In this document: positions 25,848-39,567 of the stretch, one piece after another
How the letters are laid out: each line of letters opens with the position of its first letter
Numbering within the stretch: the stretch's first letter is position 1
Virus record (IMG/VR): IMGVR_UViG_3300000115_000002
Location: 1-48,150 of that record
Source: a virus
Strand: one strand, 5' to 3'
DNA length: 48,150 nucleotides
The notes under the pieces: generated by a model
Told to the model about the DNA's origin: nothing
Seen by the model: the letters and a program-made list of their open reading frames with translations, nothing else
Databases searched by the model: none
Position numbers and translations under genes: made by a program

Positions 25848-26065
25848 GTCGTACAGATACAAAAGAAGAATTTTATACTGAACTTGACGATTGGTGGGGT
25901 CAGTTATGGGGTAATAGAATATGTGCTTCACCTCCCAATCAAAGAATAAAAGAAAAATTCTTTTATTATGTATGGCAAAAAGCTAGTGACGCAGAGTTTA
26001 AAATCAACGATGAAGATATATGTAATTTATTTTCTGGTTTCCTTAACAAACTAGGAGAACAGTAA
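25844..26065 (+). CDS. Hypothetical protein (73 aa)
   Basis: Translationally coupled ORF. Confidence 0.5.
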   Translation: MSRTDTKEEFYTELDDWWGQLWGNRICASPPNQRIKEKFFYYVWQKASDAEFKINDEDICNLFSGFLNKLGEQ

Positions 26066-26349
26066 TGATTACAGAAGATATCCTGGAATTAAAAGATAAA
26101 CTTTTAAACCCTAAGCGAGGCGACAAGTATACTACTTGGTATTATCTAGATGGCTGGAGGCTCTGCGACATTGTAGTAGGTAACAAAAAGTGTACAGTTA
26201 AACCTACTGTAAGAGGTAAAGGCTTAACGCTTTCTAGAACTGCATTAAAAAGAGAACTTGAAAGTGTTTATTGGTATGCTGCAAAGAATAAAGCAACGCC
26301 GATAGACGGTACAAAAAGATCTAAAAGATGGCAAGTTGATTTCGCTTGA
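26065..26349 (+). CDS. Hypothetical protein (94 aa)
   Basis: TAATG-coupled ORF. Confidence 0.5.
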   Translation: MITEDILELKDKLLNPKRGDKYTTWYYLDGWRLCDIVVGNKKCTVKPTVRGKGLTLSRTALKRELESVYWYAAKNKATPIDGTKRSKRWQVDFA

Positions 26350-27091: not shown

Positions 27092-28759
27092 ATGGTAGAG
27101 AAAAGACACTTTGTAGAATATCACAAACCTTGCAGGGTATGTGGTAGCAGCGATGCAGTTAGCATTAACAATGATGATACGGCTCGTTGTTTTAGTTGTG
27201 AACATTGGTTCTCATCCTACAGTGGAGAAGATAAAGTGAAAGATTTTCAAACGCACCAACGTAACACCAAAGAAACTTCTGGCTTTAAGATGGAAGGAAC
27301 ATTTCAAAAGCTAACTGATCGTAACATTTCAGAAAGTACGGCTAGAAAGTACGGAGTAAAATCTGAGTACGCATCTTCAAATAACTCAGGGAACAAACAC
27401 TATTACCCTTACTATATTGCTAATGAAGTAGCAGGGACTAAAGTTCGCAAGTGTGATACTAAAGAGTTTACTTGGATAGGATCTCCTAAAGGTGTAATGC
27501 TTTTTGGTCAACAACTATTCCAAAAAGGTGGCAAGTTCCTTACGATATGTGAGGGAGAGTGTGACGCAATGGCTGCTCACGAAATGATGGATTCAAAATG
27601 GCCTGTTGTTTCAGTAAAGAATGGCATACAAGGTGCGCTCAAAGACATCAAAGAGAATTTAGAATTCGTAGAATCATTTGATAATGTAGTAATAAACTTT
27701 GACAATGATTCTTTAGGAAAGAAAAAAGCAATTGAAGTAGCTGATTTAATATCACCAGGTAAAGCTAGAATAGTTTCTTTATCTGATGAGTTTAAAGATG
27801 CTAATGATATGCTTAGAAACAATAGAAGAGATGCATACAAAGCAGTATGGTGGAGTGCTAAGTCTTATACTCCTGCTGGCGTACTAAATATTTCTGACAT
27901 GAAAGATGAATACTTTACTCGCAAAGAGATGAAGTCTATTCCTTATCCTTGGCAAGGACTAAATGAAAAACTATTTGGGCTTAGGCAAGGCGAATTAGTT
28001 ACCTTGACAGGCGGTACAGGCTTAGGTAAATCATCTGTAACAAGAGAGCTAGAACATTTTATACTTAAAAATACTAGTGATAACTTAGGTATTCTTGCAC
28101 TAGAAGAAAACTGGCAAAGAACAGTAGACGGTTTGCTATCTATTGAGGCTAACTCTAGGCTTTACATCAAGCAGATACGAGAGTCTTTCTCTCAAGAAAA
28201 ACTAAATAATTATTACGAAAGTCTTTACGGTAAGGATGGCGAGAACAGGCTATGGGTACACTCACATTTAGGTGAGCATAACGTAGAAGAACTTTTCTCA
28301 AAGATACGTTATATGGTTCAAGGGTTAGATTGCAAATGGATTATTGTTGATCACCTTGGAATGATGACTTCTGCATTAGCGGAGGGAGATGAGCGCAGAG
28401 CCATTGATAATATTATGACTAGGCTTAGATCGTTAGTAGAAGAAACTGGTGCTGGTCTAATACTGGTATCACATCTTAGAAGAATAGATGGTAACAAAGG
28501 GCATGAGCAAGGTGCTGAAGTATCTCTTGCACACCTCAGAGGTTCTAATGGTATTAGTCAGATAAGTGATTGTGTCATTGCTCTTGAACGTAATCAACAG
28601 TCTGATGATGCAGTAGAAGCCGCCACTACAAAACTAAGAATTCTTAAATCTAGATACACTGGAGAGGTTGGATTAGCTGGAGCATTGCATTATAATAAAG
28701 AAACAGGGAGGCTTAGTGAAGTCTTTAATTACGAAGATGGCGAGGAGGTAGAGCTTTGA
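27092..28759 (+). CDS. Bifunctional primase-helicase, T7 gp4-like (555 aa)
   Basis: Zn finger CRVCGSSD...CFSCEHW, TOPRIM EGECDAMA...NFDNDSLG, and the DnaB-type Walker A TGGTGLGKSS. Confidence 0.95.
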   Translation: MVEKRHFVEYHKPCRVCGSSDAVSINNDDTARCFSCEHWFSSYSGEDKVKDFQTHQRNTKETSGFKMEGTFQKLTDRNISESTARKYGVKSEYASSNNSGNKHYYPYYIANEVAGTKVRKCDTKEFTWIGSPKGVMLFGQQLFQKGGKFLTICEGECDAMAAHEMMDSKWPVVSVKNGIQGALKDIKENLEFVESFDNVVINFDNDSLGKKKAIEVADLISPGKARIVSLSDEFKDANDMLRNNRRDAYKAVWWSAKSYTPAGVLNISDMKDEYFTRKEMKSIPYPWQGLNEKLFGLRQGELVTLTGGTGLGKSSVTRELEHFILKNTSDNLGILALEENWQRTVDGLLSIEANSRLYIKQIRESFSQEKLNNYYESLYGKDGENRLWVHSHLGEHNVEELFSKIRYMVQGLDCKWIIVDHLGMMTSALAEGDERRAIDNIMTRLRSLVEETGAGLILVSHLRRIDGNKGHEQGAEVSLAHLRGSNGISQISDCVIALERNQQSDDAVEAATTKLRILKSRYTGEVGLAGALHYNKETGRLSEVFNYEDGEEVEL

Positions 28760-30525
28760 AACAATTAGTTTTCGATATCGAAACTGATGATGTTAAAGCA
28801 ACAAAGATATGGTGTATATGTTGTATTGACATTGATACTAATCAAGAATATTCATTCACTCCTGACAACTTGGAGGCTGGCTATGAGTTATTAAAGTCAG
28901 CCGATAAACTTATAGGACATAACATCATTGGCTTTGATGTCCCAGTAATCGAGCAATTGGTCGGTGTATCTTTATGGGATAAAAAGTTAGTAGATACTCT
29001 GGTTCTTTCTAGACTGTTTAATCCTGTACGTGAAGGTAATCATGGCTTAGAGAAATGGGGATACGATTTAGGAAGTCCTAAAATAGATTTTAGTGAATAC
29101 GGTACTTACTCTGCTGAGATGTTGAAGTATTGTATGCAAGATGTCAGGCTTAATGCAAAGGTATTTACTGCTCTCAAGGCTGAAAGCAAAGGCTTTTCTC
29201 CTAAGAGTGTTGAAATAGAAATGGAAACTTATAAGATAATTTCTGCTCAGAGACAGAAAGGATTCTTATTAGATGTTCCTTTTGCATCTAAGTTACTAGC
29301 ACAATTACAAACAAAGATGGACACGTTAGTTACTAAAGTACATGAGACATTTCAACCTAAAGAAGAAACTAAATATTTATATCCTAATGTAGGTAAATCT
29401 GGGAACCTATTAAAAACAGCAACAGATAACTTTGGTAAGAATACAAGGCTAACACCAGAAGAGTTTACTGAACTTGAAAAGTTATATAACTCAGAAGGTA
29501 AGAAAGTAAAAGTTCCTAGAGTAGAAGTAACAGAATTTAATTTAGGATCTAGGAAACAAATAGGAGAATACTTAATAGACTTTGGTTGGGAGCCTGAAGT
29601 GTTTACTCCAACAGGACAACCGCAAGTAGATGAAAAGATTTTATCTAAAGTAAAAGACATACCTGAAGCAGGACTCATATGTGATTATCTTATGTATCAA
29701 AAAAGAGTAGCACAGGTAATTTCCTGGATTGAACATGTAGAAGATGACGGTAGAGTTCATGGCTTTGTAAATACTAACGGTGCTATTACAGGTAGAATGA
29801 CTCATAGCTGGCCTAACTTAGCTCAAGTGCCTAGCTCAAACGCACCTTATGGTAAAGAGTGTAGAAGTTGTTGGACTGTTCCTAAAGGATATAACCTTGT
29901 AGGTATTGATGCTTCTCAACTAGAGCTTAGAATGTTAGCACACTATATGAACGATGAGGATTATACTAATGAAATTATTAACGGAGACATTCATACCACT
30001 AATCAAAACCTTGCAGGACTTGAATCTAGAAGTCAGGCAAAAACTTTCATATATGCACTTATATACGGAGCAGGAAACCAAAAACTTGGAGCAGTGGCTA
30101 AAGGAAGTAAAGCACTTGGAACAAAACTTAGAAAACAGTTTATTGATAATCTCCCATCATACAAGGCTCTTACAGATAGAGTTGAAAGAGCATCAGCAAA
30201 AGGTTTCCTTAAAGGGTTAGATGGTAGAAAAATTTATGTACGAACTAGACATGCTGCACTGAATAGTTTATTGCAAGGAGCAGGATCAATTTTAATGAAA
30301 CAGGCGTTAATATTATTTCAAGAATACATAAAAGAAAATAAACTTGATGCTGCTTTTGTCTGCAATGTACATGATGAATGGCAAGTAGAAGTATCTGAAA
30401 AAGATGCTGATGAAGTAGGGAAGCTAGGAGTATCCGCTTTAGTTAAAGCAGGAGAAATGCTTGATCTTAAATGTCCATTAGACGGTGATTATAATGTCGG
30501 AAGAAATTGGTCAGAAACCCATTAA
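28756..30525 (+). CDS. Family A DNA polymerase with 3'-5' exonuclease, T7 gp5-like (589 aa)
   Basis: Exo I FDIETD, motif A DASQLELR, motif B RSQAKTFIYALIYGAG (Tyr at the position equivalent to E. coli Pol I F762 / T7 Y526) and motif C NVHDEW. Confidence 0.95.
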   Translation: MKQLVFDIETDDVKATKIWCICCIDIDTNQEYSFTPDNLEAGYELLKSADKLIGHNIIGFDVPVIEQLVGVSLWDKKLVDTLVLSRLFNPVREGNHGLEKWGYDLGSPKIDFSEYGTYSAEMLKYCMQDVRLNAKVFTALKAESKGFSPKSVEIEMETYKIISAQRQKGFLLDVPFASKLLAQLQTKMDTLVTKVHETFQPKEETKYLYPNVGKSGNLLKTATDNFGKNTRLTPEEFTELEKLYNSEGKKVKVPRVEVTEFNLGSRKQIGEYLIDFGWEPEVFTPTGQPQVDEKILSKVKDIPEAGLICDYLMYQKRVAQVISWIEHVEDDGRVHGFVNTNGAITGRMTHSWPNLAQVPSSNAPYGKECRSCWTVPKGYNLVGIDASQLELRMLAHYMNDEDYTNEIINGDIHTTNQNLAGLESRSQAKTFIYALIYGAGNQKLGAVAKGSKALGTKLRKQFIDNLPSYKALTDRVERASAKGFLKGLDGRKIYVRTRHAALNSLLQGAGSILMKQALILFQEYIKENKLDAAFVCNVHDEWQVEVSEKDADEVGKLGVSALVKAGEMLDLKCPLDGDYNVGRNWSETH

Positions 30526-30943
30526 CAATCCTGAACAATTAATATTATTTGAAGAAGAAGAAGTAACTACAAATAATAGAAGTTCTAGAAGGTTATGTAA
30601 TAAATGTAATGGTTGGTTGCCTATAAGCGCATTTGGTAATGCAAGTGGAGGAAACTATTTAAGAAGAGAATGTAAGCAATGTAATAAAGAATTAAAAAAG
30701 GTTAGAGATAAATTAAGATTAGAACATGAAGCTCCTCCTAAAGAATATACATGTCCTATTTGTTTGGGAACAGAAAAAGAAGTAGAAGGAATGGGAGGAC
30801 ATTCTTCTGGAACTTGGGTGTTAGATCACTGCCATGAAAAGAAATCCTTTAGAGGATGGCTTTGCCATAAATGCAACAGGGCATTAGGCGGGTTTAACGA
30901 TAATAAAAATTACTTAAAAAGGGCGATAGAATATCTTGGCTAA
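30494..30943 (+). CDS. Recombination endonuclease VII-like protein
   Basis: CPIC...VLDHCHEKKSFRGWLCHKCNRALGGFND matches the Endo VII signature (DH.H..G..RG.LC..CN..LG). Confidence 0.85.
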   Translation: MSEEIGQKPINNPEQLILFEEEEVTTNNRSSRRLCNKCNGWLPISAFGNASGGNYLRRECKQCNKELKKVRDKLRLEHEAPPKEYTCPICLGTEKEVEGMGGHSSGTWVLDHCHEKKSFRGWLCHKCNRALGGFNDNKNYLKRAIEYLG

Positions 30944-31787
30944 TTTAAATACATTGATAGAAGACATTTATAATACAATCGGATCTATATCTGAAGGAAA
31001 AGATTTAGATATTCCTGAAGAAATAGCAGAAGACTTTGGTAGGCGTATGAAAGAAGCCTTGCTTCATTGGTCAACTCCTAAGAAACAAGTCAAAGGTTTG
31101 CGTATGAGTAATATAGGTAAACCAGGAAGACAACTATGGTATGAGCAAAGAGATGATCAAAACAGAAATAAAATATCATCTCCTGTAATGATAAAATTTT
31201 TATATGGACATCTATTAGAAGAAGTCCTTTTGCTTTTTGTTAAGTTGTCAGGACATGAAGTGACCGATGAACAAAAAGAAATTAAAGTTGAAGGCATCAC
31301 TGGACACATGGACTGTAAGATTGACGGTGAAGTGGTAGATATAAAAACAGCTTCTGGTAGGTCGTTCAGTAAATTCATAACTGGATCTTTAGCCGAAGAC
31401 GATCCGTTTGGATACATAGCCCAGTTGTGTGGTTACGAACAAGCCGAAGGTACGGACAAAGGAGGTTTTCTTGCAATCAATAAAGAAACAGGAGAGCTTG
31501 CTTTATATACTCCTGAAGAACTAGATAAAATAAATATTAAATCTAGAATAATAAAAACTAAAAAGATGCTTGAAATTGACAGCCCTCCTGCTCGATGTTA
31601 TAGTGAAGAACCTGATGGAAAGAGTGGCAATTTTAAAATAAATAAAAATTGTTACTACTGTCCTTATAAATTTGAATGTTACTCAGACGCTAACGAAGGT
31701 AAAGGATTACGAACATTTACCTACGCTAGAGGCCCTGTGTATCTTACAAAAGTAAACAAACTTCCTAGAGTTGATGAGGTAGCGTGA
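30936..31787 (+). CDS. PD-(D/E)XK nuclease with a C-terminal Cys cluster (283 aa), the likely replication/recombination exonuclease
   Basis: GHMDCKIDGEVVDIKTAS fits the D...(D/E)xK pattern. The C-terminus has C-x17-C-x2-C-x5-C (CYSEE...NCYYCPYKFEC). Confidence 0.55.
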   Translation: MANLNTLIEDIYNTIGSISEGKDLDIPEEIAEDFGRRMKEALLHWSTPKKQVKGLRMSNIGKPGRQLWYEQRDDQNRNKISSPVMIKFLYGHLLEEVLLLFVKLSGHEVTDEQKEIKVEGITGHMDCKIDGEVVDIKTASGRSFSKFITGSLAEDDPFGYIAQLCGYEQAEGTDKGGFLAINKETGELALYTPEELDKINIKSRIIKTKKMLEIDSPPARCYSEEPDGKSGNFKINKNCYYCPYKFECYSDANEGKGLRTFTYARGPVYLTKVNKLPRVDEVA

Positions 31788-32056
31788 ATAGAAAAGTATA
31801 TAAGAAAGTCAGGCGACATGCTGAATCTATACTATTAGATTGGGTTAAATCGTTATCAACTGAAGAAGAAATTACATCAGTTAATATAAAAGATTACTTA
31901 CCTAAACATGGTTACATACCAATAGAGCAAGGTAATAAAGTAAATTTTTATACTGAAAGATGGGCAGTAAGAGAAGTAAAGAAGTTAGTTTTAAAAGGAC
32001 ATATTCTTAACGACATAACCATGAGAGACTTAGAATCAGCACAAAAAAGAAAGTAA
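31784..32056 (+). CDS. Hypothetical protein (90 aa)
   Basis: ORF. Its stop TAA at 32054-32056 overlaps the ATA at 32056. Confidence 0.5.
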   Translation: MNRKVYKKVRRHAESILLDWVKSLSTEEEITSVNIKDYLPKHGYIPIEQGNKVNFYTERWAVREVKKLVLKGHILNDITMRDLESAQKRK

Positions 32057-32532
32057 TAGTTAAAGCGAGGCGCAGAAAACCTAGAGTTAAACGCCCCTAC
32101 TTAAAATACAAAGGCTATGATTCAATATGGGAAGCAGTATTACATGAATCAATTTTAAAAGATTGGACTCATCATACTAATAAAATTCCTTACGTTGTAG
32201 AGCATACATATGAACCAGACTTTGTACGAAAACTTGAGAACAAAATTATTCTTTTAGAATCTAAAGGGAGGTTTTGGGATCACGCTGAGTACAGTAAATA
32301 TATATGGGTTAAAAAGAATCTACCTGCCAACTATGAATTAGTTTTTTTATTTGCTAATCCTTCTGCTGCAATGCCAGGAGCAAAGCGCAGGAAAGATGGA
32401 ACTAAAAGAAGTCATGGTGAGTGGGCATCAGCTAATGATTTTAGATGGTTCAGTGAAGATAGCATACCAGATTCTTGGATTGATCCTGAAGCTAGAGAAA
32501 TACAAGATAAACTAGACTTGGAGATAGAATGA
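32056..32532 (+). CDS. T7 endonuclease I (gp3)-like Holliday-junction resolvase. It has no canonical start codon. Coordinates assume initiation at ATA 32056.
   Basis: My translation of the frame open from 32011 to TGA 32530-32532 is ...KARRRKPRVKRPYLKYKGYDSIWEAVLHESILKDWTHHTNKIPYVVEHTYEPDFVRKLENKIILLESKGRFWDHAEYSKYIWVKKNLPANYELVFLFANPS...HGEWASANDFRWFSEDSIPDSW.... It aligns by eye with T7 gp3 (SGLEDKV, YTPDF, ETKG). It is absent from the ORF track. Confidence 0.7.
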   Translation: MVKARRRKPRVKRPYLKYKGYDSIWEAVLHESILKDWTHHTNKIPYVVEHTYEPDFVRKLENKIILLESKGRFWDHAEYSKYIWVKKNLPANYELVFLFANPSAAMPGAKRRKDGTKRSHGEWASANDFRWFSEDSIPDSWIDPEAREIQDKLDLEIE

Positions 32533-32813
32533 GTATTGATAATGCAACTCCTGAAGATTGGAATAAAGCTGCACTTAATTATGATAACGTAAACCGTCCT
32601 GAGCATTACAATAAAGGAAAGATAGAATGCATAGATGCAATAGAAGCTATGCTTAGTCCTATAGAATTTGTGGGTTATTTAAGAGGTAACTCTCAAAAAT
32701 ATCGTTGGAGAATGCCATACAAAGGAAAGGCTTTACAAGATTTAAAAAAAGCTGAGTGGTATGATAATAGATTAACTGACTACATAGAAAAAAATCCAAA
32801 TGTTGTGGAATAA
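32529..32813 (+). CDS. DUF3310-like protein (94 aa)
   Basis: VNRPEHYNKGKIECIDAIEA...GNSQKYRWR...DLKKAEWY matches the DUF3310 pattern. Confidence 0.75.
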   Translation: MSIDNATPEDWNKAALNYDNVNRPEHYNKGKIECIDAIEAMLSPIEFVGYLRGNSQKYRWRMPYKGKALQDLKKAEWYDNRLTDYIEKNPNVVE

Positions 32814-32899
32814 AAAAGCAGAAAGAAACAAAAAATATCATAAGAAAAATAAAGCTAAAACAAAAAAATATCGTGCAGAACAATTGAGGTTAAAAGAAT

Positions 32900-34798
32900 A
32901 TGACAATGACATCCTCGAAAACAGGAGTTCAAGATTATTTAGGAATAAAAATTGACTATGAAAAAGAAAAGCAAATTGATTCTTTTTCTTTTCATACTTT
33001 AAAAGATAGATACTTTTGGGAAGATGAAACACACGCTCAAGAAGCTTATGCTAGAGCATCAGTTTTTGGAGCTACGCAAGGAAGCTATGGATCTACAGAC
33101 TATGAACTAGCACAAAGACTTTATAACTATGCTAGTAAAAATTGGTTTATGTTTAGCACTCCTATATTATCTAATGGAGGCACTAGCAGAGGGCTACCTA
33201 TCTCTTGCTTTTTAAACTATGTACCTGACTCTAGGTCAGGGCTTAGTAATCACTATGATGAAAACATTTGGCTTGCTAGTTCTGGTGGAGGGCTTGGAGG
33301 ATATTGGGGAGATGTTAGAAGTAATGGTGTATCAACTTCAAATGGCTCTCAGTCTACAGGAACAATACCTTTTATGCATGTTGTAGATAGTCAGATGCTT
33401 GCCTTTAACCAAGGAGTTACTAGGCGAGGAAGCTATGCAGCATACTTAGATATAACTCATCCTGAGATTGAAGAGTTTATTGCCATGAGAAAAACAACAG
33501 GCGGTGATTTAAATAGAAAATGTTTAAATTTACACAATGGCGTAAATATATCTAATGCTTTTTTGAAAGCTGTAAAAGAAGATAATGATTGGAGATTAAT
33601 AGATCCCAAAACAAAACAAGCAGTAAAGACTATATCAGCAAGAGATCTTTGGTTTCAGCTTATTCATACTAGAGCAGAAACTGGAGAGCCTTACATAGTA
33701 AATATAGATAACTGTAACGATGCATTAAATATTTTTCAAAGAGATTTAGGTCTTGAGATAAATCAAAGTAATCTTTGTTCTGAAATAACATTACCTACTA
33801 ATGAAGAAAGAACAGCAGTTTGTTGTCTATCTAGTGTCAATCTAGAATTTTTTGATGATTGGAAAGAAGATCAATACTTTATAAGCGATCTTATAACAAT
33901 GCTTGATAATATCTTACAGCACTTTATAGACTCTGCTTTAAAAGAAAATTCTAGTAATTTAAATGTAACTACACTAGAGGAGTTTATGCAGTATGTCAGG
34001 GAAGATAAACAAGGGTATGCGAAAGCCGCTTATTCAGCATATAGAGAACGCGCAGTTGGTCTTGGAGCGATGGGCTTTCATGCTTATTTACAGCGGAATT
34101 ATATATCTTTTAAAGGTATGTATGCCTCTTCCTTCAATAACAGATCTTTCAAACACATCAAAGATTCGGCTACTGCCGCTTCTAGGGTACTGGCTGAAGT
34201 TCGGGGCGAGTCACCTGATATGCGGTTTAGCGGTTTGCGTAATTCTCATCTTCTCGCTATTGCCCCTAATGCCTCTAGCAGTATTATATGTGGTGGAACG
34301 AGTCCTTCAATTGAGCCTTTCAGGGCTAACGTATTTACGCACAAAACTTTAACAGGCTCTTACAAGGTAAAAAATAAATACCTTAAAAAGTTACTTAGAA
34401 AAAAAGGAATAGATACAGAAGAAACCTGGAAAAGCATAGCTGCTTTTGATGGGTCTATTCAACACATAGAATATCTTTCAGATGAAGAAAAAGAAATATT
34501 TAAAACAGCCCCTGAGATAAACCAGATATGGTGTATTGAACACGCACATCAGAGACAAAAGTATGTATGTCAAAGTCAAAGTGTAAACCTTTTCTTTAAC
34601 CCTCCTTCTGCTACAGAACCTCAAGAACTGCATGATGAATTCTTAGAGTATGTAAATAATGTACATTGGGTCGGAGCTAATAAATTAAAATCTCTTTATT
34701 ATCTTAGGTCTAATGCTGCTAGAAATACTGAAAATGTAAATATAAAAGTTCCTAGAATAAACTTAGAGGAGGAAGCGTGTTTAAGTTGCGAGGGTTAA
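32900..34798 (+). CDS. nrdA: Ribonucleotide reductase large subunit, class I, without an ATP-cone (632 aa)
   Basis: Active-site NLCSEITLP, a C-terminal redox Cys pair CLSCEG, and pairing with an R2 gene downstream. Confidence 0.85.
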   Translation: MTMTSSKTGVQDYLGIKIDYEKEKQIDSFSFHTLKDRYFWEDETHAQEAYARASVFGATQGSYGSTDYELAQRLYNYASKNWFMFSTPILSNGGTSRGLPISCFLNYVPDSRSGLSNHYDENIWLASSGGGLGGYWGDVRSNGVSTSNGSQSTGTIPFMHVVDSQMLAFNQGVTRRGSYAAYLDITHPEIEEFIAMRKTTGGDLNRKCLNLHNGVNISNAFLKAVKEDNDWRLIDPKTKQAVKTISARDLWFQLIHTRAETGEPYIVNIDNCNDALNIFQRDLGLEINQSNLCSEITLPTNEERTAVCCLSSVNLEFFDDWKEDQYFISDLITMLDNILQHFIDSALKENSSNLNVTTLEEFMQYVREDKQGYAKAAYSAYRERAVGLGAMGFHAYLQRNYISFKGMYASSFNNRSFKHIKDSATAASRVLAEVRGESPDMRFSGLRNSHLLAIAPNASSSIICGGTSPSIEPFRANVFTHKTLTGSYKVKNKYLKKLLRKKGIDTEETWKSIAAFDGSIQHIEYLSDEEKEIFKTAPEINQIWCIEHAHQRQKYVCQSQSVNLFFNPPSATEPQELHDEFLEYVNNVHWVGANKLKSLYYLRSNAARNTENVNIKVPRINLEEEACLSCEG

Positions 34799-39082: not shown

Positions 39083-39244
39083 TTACCTCCTAATAAATTG
39101 TATGCACTCTGCCTCTACTTCTCTTTCAAATTTTTGATTGTTGATATACTTTGCTACCTCCCAACATTCAGACATTGTGCTATAGGTATTAAACTCTACA
39201 ACACCTAACTGACCAGAAAATAAATATAAAACTATTTTAAACAT
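39083..39244 (-). CDS. Small hypothetical protein (53 aa)
   Basis: My translation is MFKIVLYLFSGQLGVVEFNTYSTMSECWEVAKYINNQKFEREVEAECIQFIRR. It has a TAATG junction with the upstream gene and is below the track cutoff. Confidence 0.4.
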   Translation of the reverse strand: MFKIVLYLFSGQLGVVEFNTYSTMSECWEVAKYINNQKFEREVEAECIQFIRR

Positions 39245-39567
39245 TATTTCTTTGCCCATACTTGAGTACCAAAAAAGGTAGCTATTACTCCAGCAACTGC
39301 AACAAAGTATACAGCAGCTATGTCCCCAAGTATTTCTGTAGCTTGATTAAGACCAACAAAAGAACTACCTAAAATTAACGAAGGGTACAAAAGCATACCC
39401 CATAAAGCAAACCAACACATCTTACGTTGAGCATCAGCCTTCTCATGTTCCATCTCAAGATTCTGGAGTCTTTCAGAAAATGCTAATTCATCATCTGACA
39501 CTATACCGTCACCGTTGGCATCATACTTATTGAAAGAGCTATCTGGCTCTAGTTGTTTCGGACTCAC
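39244..39567 (-). CDS. EF-hand calcium-binding membrane protein (107 aa, two predicted TM helices)
   Basis: Canonical 12-residue EF loop DANGDGIVSDDE (aa 16-27). Hydrophobic helices MCWFALWGMLLYPSLILGSSFV and IAAVYFVAVAGVIATFF. Confidence 0.65.
   Translation of the reverse strand: MSPKQLEPDSSFNKYDANGDGIVSDDELAFSERLQNLEMEHEKADAQRKMCWFALWGMLLYPSLILGSSFVGLNQATEILGDIAAVYFVAVAGVIATFFGTQVWAKK

Follow-up and report, generated by a model that had tools for sequence, protein, structure and literature searches.

The locus described here raises the question of how a phage gene that appears to be intact could be translated if its reading frame offers no canonical start codon ahead of the conserved part of the protein. 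It is located in a stretch of 48,150 nt from an uncultured marine podovirus (IMG/VR record IMGVR_UViG_3300000115_000002, positions 1-48,150; the whole stretch is referred to below as the window), and the gene in question encodes a homolog of the endonuclease I (Endo I) of phage T7. The Endo I frame is open from 32011 to 32532, comprising 174 codons including the stop codon TGA 32530-32532, and is preceded by TAA 32008-32010. Direct reading of the sequence agrees with the first-pass annotation of the window in that this frame contains no ATG, GTG or TTG before ATG 32371, and the list of open reading frames (ORFs) gives only a tail of 53 amino acids (aa) for it. Ahead of the conserved core, the frame offers two start-like codons and no more, ATC 32035 and ATA 32056. 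Comparison with related loci indicates that this is a functional Endo I gene which is probably initiated at a non-canonical AUH codon, and among the candidates ATC 32035 is somewhat favored as the start, although both codons may be used.

The elements of the junction between this gene and the overlapping upstream ORF, designated orf90, are as follows.

32035..32532, + strand: proposed Endo I coding sequence, 165 codons from ATC 32035 followed by TGA 32530-32532; phrog_945, structure matches and substitution rates point to a coding gene
32035..32037, + strand: ATC, best-supported candidate start, codon 0 of the conserved N-terminus ISTKKK
32056..32058, + strand: ATA, secondary candidate start, codon +7, in a TAATA overlap with the orf90 stop; 158-aa product
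32023..32027, + strand: weak Shine-Dalgarno (SD)-like GAGAG, 7 nt upstream of ATC 32035; duplex energy -2.9 kcal/mol
32043..32048, + strand: A6 run, Lys codons of ISTKKK in the Endo I frame; identical in at least eight independent contigs
32074..32097, + strand: basic motif RKPRVKRP, upstream of the nuclease core; K23, R25, R28 and P29 nearly invariant
32131..32265, + strand: putative catalytic residues E41 (32131-33), D70 (32218-20), E83 (32257-59) and K85 (32263-65)
31784..32056, + strand: orf90, upstream 90-aa ORF; phrog_37981 (E 1.4e-18); syntenic in nearly all related loci

orf90 lies in the +1 frame relative to that of Endo I and shares its final 22 nt with the region proposed for the Endo I start, ATC 32035 being situated 19 nt upstream of the orf90 stop. 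The stop codon itself, TAA 32054-32056, overlaps the in-frame ATA 32056-32058, as had been described in the first-pass annotation; the two TAATG junctions with which this overlap had been compared are both present, at 26063-26067 on the + strand and at 39242-39246 on the - strand.

Start codons of endonuclease I in related marine phages

Related loci (designated by L numbers) were collected from IMG/VR (80 loci) and from ENA/JGI (six loci, encoding the closest proteins), and the gene order DNA polymerase, variable slot, Cas4-like exonuclease, orf90, Endo I, DUF3310 protein and RNR is kept among them. At 73 distinct junctions in related marine phages, the nearest canonical start codon (ATG, GTG or TTG) upstream of the motif RKPRVxRP was scored. 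This was TTG at 30 junctions, ATG at 23 and GTG at six, and no canonical start was found at the other 14, all of which have an ATT or ATC codon 7-13 codons before the motif (14/14). For five neighboring genes, the junctions lacking a canonical start amounted to 0/58, 0/58, 0/46, 0/31 and, for the DNA polymerase, 4/42, and the comparison of Endo I (14/73) with the pooled neighbors (4/235) gave p = 7e-7 in Fisher's test. TTG starts were also found in homologs from the cultured phages SL4 and Slicky01.

Alignment of the N-termini of 22 distinct sequences, including that of the window, revealed a clade in which the protein begins with (I/M)STKKK and in which the first codon of this peptide (codon 0) is only ever ATT, ATC or ATG; its homolog in the window is ATC 32035-32037. 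Across this clade, identity in the Endo I frame is at most 0.19 at codons -8 to -1 and 0.63-1.0 at codons 0 to +4, and in L014, L016, and L021 the frame is closed two to three codons upstream of codon 0, with no other start-like codon present. The codons of (I/M)STKKK vary synonymously (AGT/AGC, ACA/ACT/ACC, AAA/AAG), thus it is the peptide itself that is conserved. SD-like motifs (GGGAG, AGGAGG, GGGGAG) with a dG of -7 kcal/mol or lower precede nine of the 14 start-less ATT or ATC codons, and eight of these nine rank in the top 5% of control Ile codons.

Regarding selection, ratios of nonsynonymous to synonymous substitution rates (dN/dS) of 0.05-0.12 were obtained between lineages all of which lack a canonical start, including 0.082 for the window and L082, 0.057 for L009 and L015, and 0.051 for L015 and L021, with synonymous sites near saturation in such pairs (proportion of synonymous differences, pS, 0.61-0.65). 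From these low ratios it follows that the gene has long been maintained by selection without a canonical start and, as far as sequence comparison can indicate, it is under purifying selection and functional.

The start of the DNA polymerase gene was also inspected. In L035, L037, L040, and L047 an ATT is found at the codon homologous to the TTG of the window and no canonical start is available; ATT starts are therefore not confined to Endo I. In the window, the DNA polymerase start TTG 28756-28758 forms a TTGA overlap with a primase/helicase-like gene and has a strong SD sequence, GAGGAGG.

The window's own sub-clade comprises four lineages, namely the window, L081, L082-85 (one lineage, obtained from four or five samples), and L086. 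Compared with the wider clade (L015 and L017), about 22 nt have seemingly been lost in this sub-clade between the 'DLE' codons of orf90 and the Endo I start, which changes the frame relation of the two genes, the C-terminus of orf90 (SAQKRK*) now being read, in a different frame, from the sequence that encodes the N-terminus of Endo I.

Identity of the encoded nuclease

The protein had been described as a clear T7 gp3-like protein in the first-pass annotation. The homology is real and the gene is intact, but the relationship is not obvious: a direct Pfam scan (hmmscan) of the window protein did not reach PF05367 even at E <= 10, and a phmmer search of PDB sequences with the single window protein gave no match. 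The profile phrog_945 ('endonuclease') was matched over almost its whole length (E 5.5e-34), and more than 750 metagenomic homologs (753) were found, most of which carry a precomputed match to PF05367. A family profile built from 24 homologous sequences matched the T7 endonuclease I structures 1m0d, 1fzr, and 2pfj with E-values of 4.5e-5 to 4.8e-4. In this alignment PDF (D70) corresponds to T7 D55 and E-S-K-G (E83, K85) corresponds to T7 E65 and K67. The motifs SIWE, EPDF, and LLESKG, which had been suggested to hold the catalytic residues, are indeed present and invariant or nearly so in the homologs; among the 24 sequences E41, E83, and K85 are invariant and D70 nearly so. Judging by the residue pattern, E41 of SIWE may be the equivalent of T7 E20, the profile alignment beginning only at T7 residue 23.

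An AlphaFold2 monomer model of the window protein reached a mean predicted local distance difference test score (pLDDT) of 77 and a predicted template modeling score (pTM) of 0.69. The top four Foldseek matches of this model were T7 Endo I chains, 2pfj, 1fzr, and 3cae among them, with probabilities of 0.99-1.0; TM-scores were only 0.37-0.52 and root-mean-square deviations high, as would be expected if the chains in the crystals are domain-swapped. On these profile and model comparisons, the window gene encodes a distant but real nuclease of the T7 gp3 type. Like T7 endonuclease I (gene 3; PF05367; 1fzr, 1m0d, 2pfj), this is a small basic protein encoded in a replication module, beside DNA polymerase and exonuclease genes. 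It differs from the T7 protein in sequence, identity being only about 22-24%, in a longer insertion around PSAAMPGAKRRKDGTKRSH, in the basic N-terminal extension RKPRVKRP and in the absence of a canonical start codon from its gene, whereas T7 gene 3 starts with ATG.

Candidate start codons in the window and alternative explanations

Translation ahead of the nuclease core is indicated by the motif RKPRVKRP, whose coding sequences in the window, L081, and L082 differ only synonymously (GTT/GTG/GTA, AAA/AAG, CGC/CGT, CCC/CCT); L086 has the synonymous Pro codon CCA, but its motif, MKRRIKRP, contains three replacements. As the motif is conserved with synonymous changes, it is translated, and translation must therefore begin before 32074. 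Starts at ATG 32371 or ATA 32125 were excluded on the ground that the motif upstream of them is translated, and the same applies to the ATG chosen by the gene caller in L082-85.

Upstream of 32074, L081 has an ATG within a TAATG overlap exactly at the position of the TAATA and ATA 32056 of the window, and in L086 an ATG replaces the first R of the motif. L082-85 have TTAGCT where the window has ATA, and the homolog of ATC 32035, preceded at 7 nt by GGGAG (-7.3 kcal/mol in L082, top 3%), is the one start-like codon left to them. The peptide ISTKKK is intact in the lineages without a downstream ATG, i.e., the window and L082-85, and degraded where such an ATG exists (ISTAKK in L081, IDTKKK in L086), which suggests that it is translated where it is needed. 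When the RNA of the 121-nt junction was folded, 198 of 200 shuffled sequences gave more stable structures (z = +1.87), the low degree of structure being as expected for an initiation region. The strength of the SD sequence does not decide between ATC and ATA in the window as both are weak, no SD sequence being present before ATA 32056 (-0.9 kcal/mol); weak motifs of the TAGAGAG type precede other genes of the window too.

Several points weigh against initiation at ATC 32035. Its GAGAG, at -2.9 kcal/mol, is equaled by 45% of control Ile codons, and the conservation of ATC and ISTKKK within the sub-clade, a comparison of only four lineages, is confounded by the overlapping C-terminus of orf90 (...DLESAQKRK*). 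The ATG of L081 also coincides with ATA 32056 and not with ATC 32035. Furthermore, both the assignment of the start codon and the coupling to orf90 are inferred, and control of expression on account of toxicity is a rationale rather than a result.

The first-pass annotation had put forward three explanations for the missing start codon, and these can be weighed against initiation at ATC 32035, a codon that it did not consider. Initiation on a non-canonical codon, which was among them, is the best explanation for a selected, intact gene with only AUH starts; the version proposed, in which ribosomes would reinitiate on ATA 32056-32058 after terminating at the orf90 TAA 32054-32056, is unlikely to describe the main or sole start, though it deserves consideration. 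It agrees with L081, which is 81% identical, has the same synteny and carries ATG at this exact position in a TAATG overlap, and TAATG junctions exist in the window; moreover, an AUA start is reported to be capable of a performance comparable to that of AUG in vitro in an optimized context (PMC5499595). Against it, the equally close L082-85, which also lack a canonical start, have TTA GCT at this position and only the ATC as a start-like codon, ATA has no SD sequence before it, and initiation at ATA would leave the conserved STKKK untranslated, although precisely those lineages that lack a downstream ATG have kept this peptide intact. ATC 32035 is thus better supported than ATA, by the clade of 22 sequences and by L082-85. 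The second explanation was a -1 shift or an indel in the A6 run, by which orf90 would be fused to the endonuclease. Ribosomes could slip in the P site, on A AAA AGA or at the A AAG next to TAA, or the transcript could be altered by slippage on A6, to the same effect; the product would contain the junction peptide ...DLESAQKRKVIVK. The Endo I frame is indeed -1 relative to orf90, both A6 and A AAG TAA might allow a shift, and the same frame relation and an A-run are found in L082-86. Yet no X XXY YYZ heptamer occurs in the orf90 frame (GCA CAA AAA AGA AAG TAA), the heptamer A AAA AAG falling in the Endo I frame, and no stimulatory structure follows (z = +1.87 for the 121-nt junction, +1.29 for the 66 nt after the run). 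An A6 run is short for transcriptional slippage, and this one, which consists of Lys codons in the Endo I frame, is not a demonstrated slippery site; its length varies in the wider clade (ACT AAA AAG AAA or ACA AAG AAA). A slip on A AAG is conceivable in the window and L086 but impossible in L082, where orf90 ends in AAT TAG, and L081 and L086 carry their own ATG in the same arrangement. The comparison of the junction in relatives that the first-pass annotation had advised showed that the frame relation is not conserved, the upstream ORF being offset by 1 at 29 junctions and by 2 at 30, and in many relatives this ORF stops at or before codon 0 (ATTAG). No fusion was present among the best 120 homologs listed of the 753 found, none of which exceeds 195 aa. 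The arrangement resembles programmed -1 sites (A AAA AAG of dnaX; the G/GT of the phage tail-assembly chaperone) in that an A-rich run ends the upstream ORF and the downstream frame is -1, but differs from them in that the heptamer is out of frame, the stimulatory structure is absent and the frame relation is not conserved. As a mechanism, frameshift fusion is therefore not conserved, and a leading role in the window is unlikely; its probability here is very small.

An error of sequencing or assembly at the junction, the true codon being ATG or the A-run being of another length, has next to no probability. Near-identical contigs (L088-L099) were found in TARA, ENA, and Logan samples by exact-protein look-ups of both flanking genes, and the 120-nt junction, including the A6 run, is identical in 11 loci; these stem from at least eight contigs that are independent of one another, differing in sample and assembler (TARA scaffolds, SPAdes NODEs, Logan). 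The whole gene shows no difference in L088-L096 and L099, which stem from assemblies of different samples, and the variation among contigs of more than 99.6% identity consists of scaffold Ns, three single-nucleotide polymorphisms outside the gene and one deletion in a T-run (L097); it is too low to inform on selection. Homopolymers are error-prone, and the deletion in L097 (2.3x coverage) affects 1 nt of a T7 run elsewhere in the gene (window 32336-32342), where it would put Endo I out of frame; a homopolymer error is its most likely cause. The third explanation, a very recent loss of the start (ATG to ATA from an ancestor like L081) that would have left the gene silent, with another nuclease covering its function, is in line with the single G/A difference between the window and the TAATG of L081, with the presence of an Endo VII-type gene in the window and with the weak SD sequence before ATC 32035. 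It is nevertheless highly improbable, given that in an AT-rich genome the ORF is wholly intact and its catalytic residues are in place, that the start-less state is fixed in a population sampled across many metagenomes as well as in the separate lineage L082-85, and that most start-less relatives have no Endo VII gene. A recent loss is also at odds with the dN/dS of 0.05-0.12 at nearly saturated synonymous sites that was found between start-less lineages.

Genomic context, expression and implications

The following genes flank the junction described above.

30494..30943, + strand: Endo VII-type gene; PF02945 (Pfam E 1.1e-13 over residues 86-151) and phrog_2633 (E 3.7e-25)
32529..32813, + strand: DUF3310 gene, downstream; PF11753 (E 8.5e-19); its ATG overlaps the Endo I stop (ATGA)

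In addition, a putative 51-aa ORF at 32800-32955 of the window overlaps both of its neighbors, the DUF3310 gene at its end and the RNR gene at its start, and is called consistently in near-identical contigs. The slot between the DNA polymerase and the exonuclease, occupied in the window by the Endo VII-type gene (30494-30943), varies among the relatives. An Endo VII type was found in this slot in 8 of 64 related loci; T5orf172/MUG113 (GIY-YIG-like) ORFs are present in many, and a weak PD-(D/E)XK/Hjc-like ORF, HNH-looking ORFs and unknowns also occur. The slot ORFs (window; L001-L081) share their first ~12 aa (IMSExTGQK), because the polymerase gene, whose 3' end is conserved, overlaps them there. 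This pattern suggests that the slot is a hot spot of free-standing homing-type nucleases, the Endo VII-type gene of the window included. The first-pass annotation had considered it unusual that a second resolvase is carried; the match to PF02945 is real, but the gene belongs to a swappable cassette and is mostly absent from start-less loci. As most start-less Endo I loci lack an Endo VII gene, redundancy does not explain the missing start, and the apparent two-resolvase state corresponds to an Endo I that belongs to the core, accompanied by an exchangeable nuclease cassette.

Regarding the source phage, the window, with ~48 kb, 35% GC and divergent gene arms, has the appearance of an almost complete genome, and contigs of up to 47.5 kb from several ocean samples, TARA samples among them, represent the same genome at more than 99.6% identity. 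Its DNA polymerase is approximately 50% identical to those of the Pelagibacter phages HTVC103P, HTVC104P, and HTVC115P. No megablast match to positions 31000-33500 of the window was obtained among GenBank phages, and the nearest cultured relative, pelagiphage HTVC103P, has no endonuclease I annotated around its DNA polymerase and is uninformative for the junction.

The region is predicted to encode a junction-resolving or debranching nuclease of the T7 endonuclease I type. Initiation at ATC 32035-32037 would yield a protein of 165 aa with the predicted N-terminus (f)M-STKKKVIVK, and ATA 32056-32058, as a second possibility, one of 158 aa with the predicted N-terminus (f)M-VKARRRKPR. Ribosomes translating or terminating on the overlapping orf90 would probably be delivered to the Endo I start, and the unstructured, A-rich junction may help initiation. 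A likely consequence of such a weak start would be that only very small amounts are made of a nuclease whose excess is toxic; T7 Endo I is toxic when over-expressed. The family-wide bias to weak starts, with TTG the commonest, points to selection for low synthesis of a harmful nuclease.

The enzyme family, non-AUG initiation and stop-start coupling are all already known. AUU, AUC, and AUA are documented bacterial start codons (PMC5499595; 10.1101/063800), with reported efficiencies of 5-7.5% of AUG in a phage lysin construct (PMC5499595) and of 0.01-2% in a systematic screen in E. coli (10.1101/063800), and with a strong dependence on context. As in bacterial genes initiated at AUH codons (infC; the phage HB-3 lysin construct), a conserved gene has an AUH codon as its only available start, and some relatives have ATG at the corresponding site. 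In contrast to infC, the AUU of which serves an autoregulatory loop of IF3, nothing links the phage gene to IF3, the phage gene starts within an overlapping upstream ORF or at the end of this ORF, and such starts recur across a phage lineage (14/73 Endo I and 4/42 DNA polymerase junctions). Coupled overlapping phage genes offer a further parallel, since the module of the window uses TAATG, ATGA, GTGA, and TTGA overlaps and L081 has TAATG at this very junction; here, however, the overlapping triplet of the window is ATA rather than ATG, and the better start lies 19 nt upstream of the stop. In a limited literature search, which returned only general papers on non-AUG initiation, neither a phage endonuclease I with an ATT or near-cognate start nor a prior description of the recurrent, selected use of ATT/ATC starts for Endo I, and now and then for the DNA polymerase, in an abundant marine phage lineage was found.

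Regarding annotation, the gene caller leaves the same gap and calls the same 53-aa fragment in those contigs of this phage that contain the gene wholly inside, and the annotations of Endo I in relatives are truncated or have arbitrary upstream starts; resolvase counts in marine phages are therefore biased. In Pseudomonas phage SL4 (L103, MF768469.1; Bruynoghevirus), the annotation of the Endo I homolog is limited to an 80-aa 'hypothetical protein' (548-787), and the full Endo I frame spans 344-787, beginning with TTG 344 immediately behind a stop codon; the weak start probably led to a mis-annotation here.

That an abundant marine podovirus lineage deliberately uses AUU and AUC starts on a subset of its replication genes, as a form of regulation and not as a defect, is a tentative and rather doubtful proposition. 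If true, such starts would concern about 20% of lineages for Endo I and about 10% for the DNA polymerase, and standard gene finders would systematically lose or truncate such genes in ocean viromes. By analogy with infC, the synthesis of the toxic nuclease could then depend on translational coupling or on the initiation fidelity of the host (IF3 level, ppGpp, nutrient state). Apart from this proposition, recurrent, selected ATT and ATC starts on a toxic nuclease would represent a natural example of the tuning of expression by the start codon, and the occurrence of ATG, TTG, ATT or ATC at the same codon in related lineages provides a comparative series for gauging how far phages can rely on near-cognate initiation.

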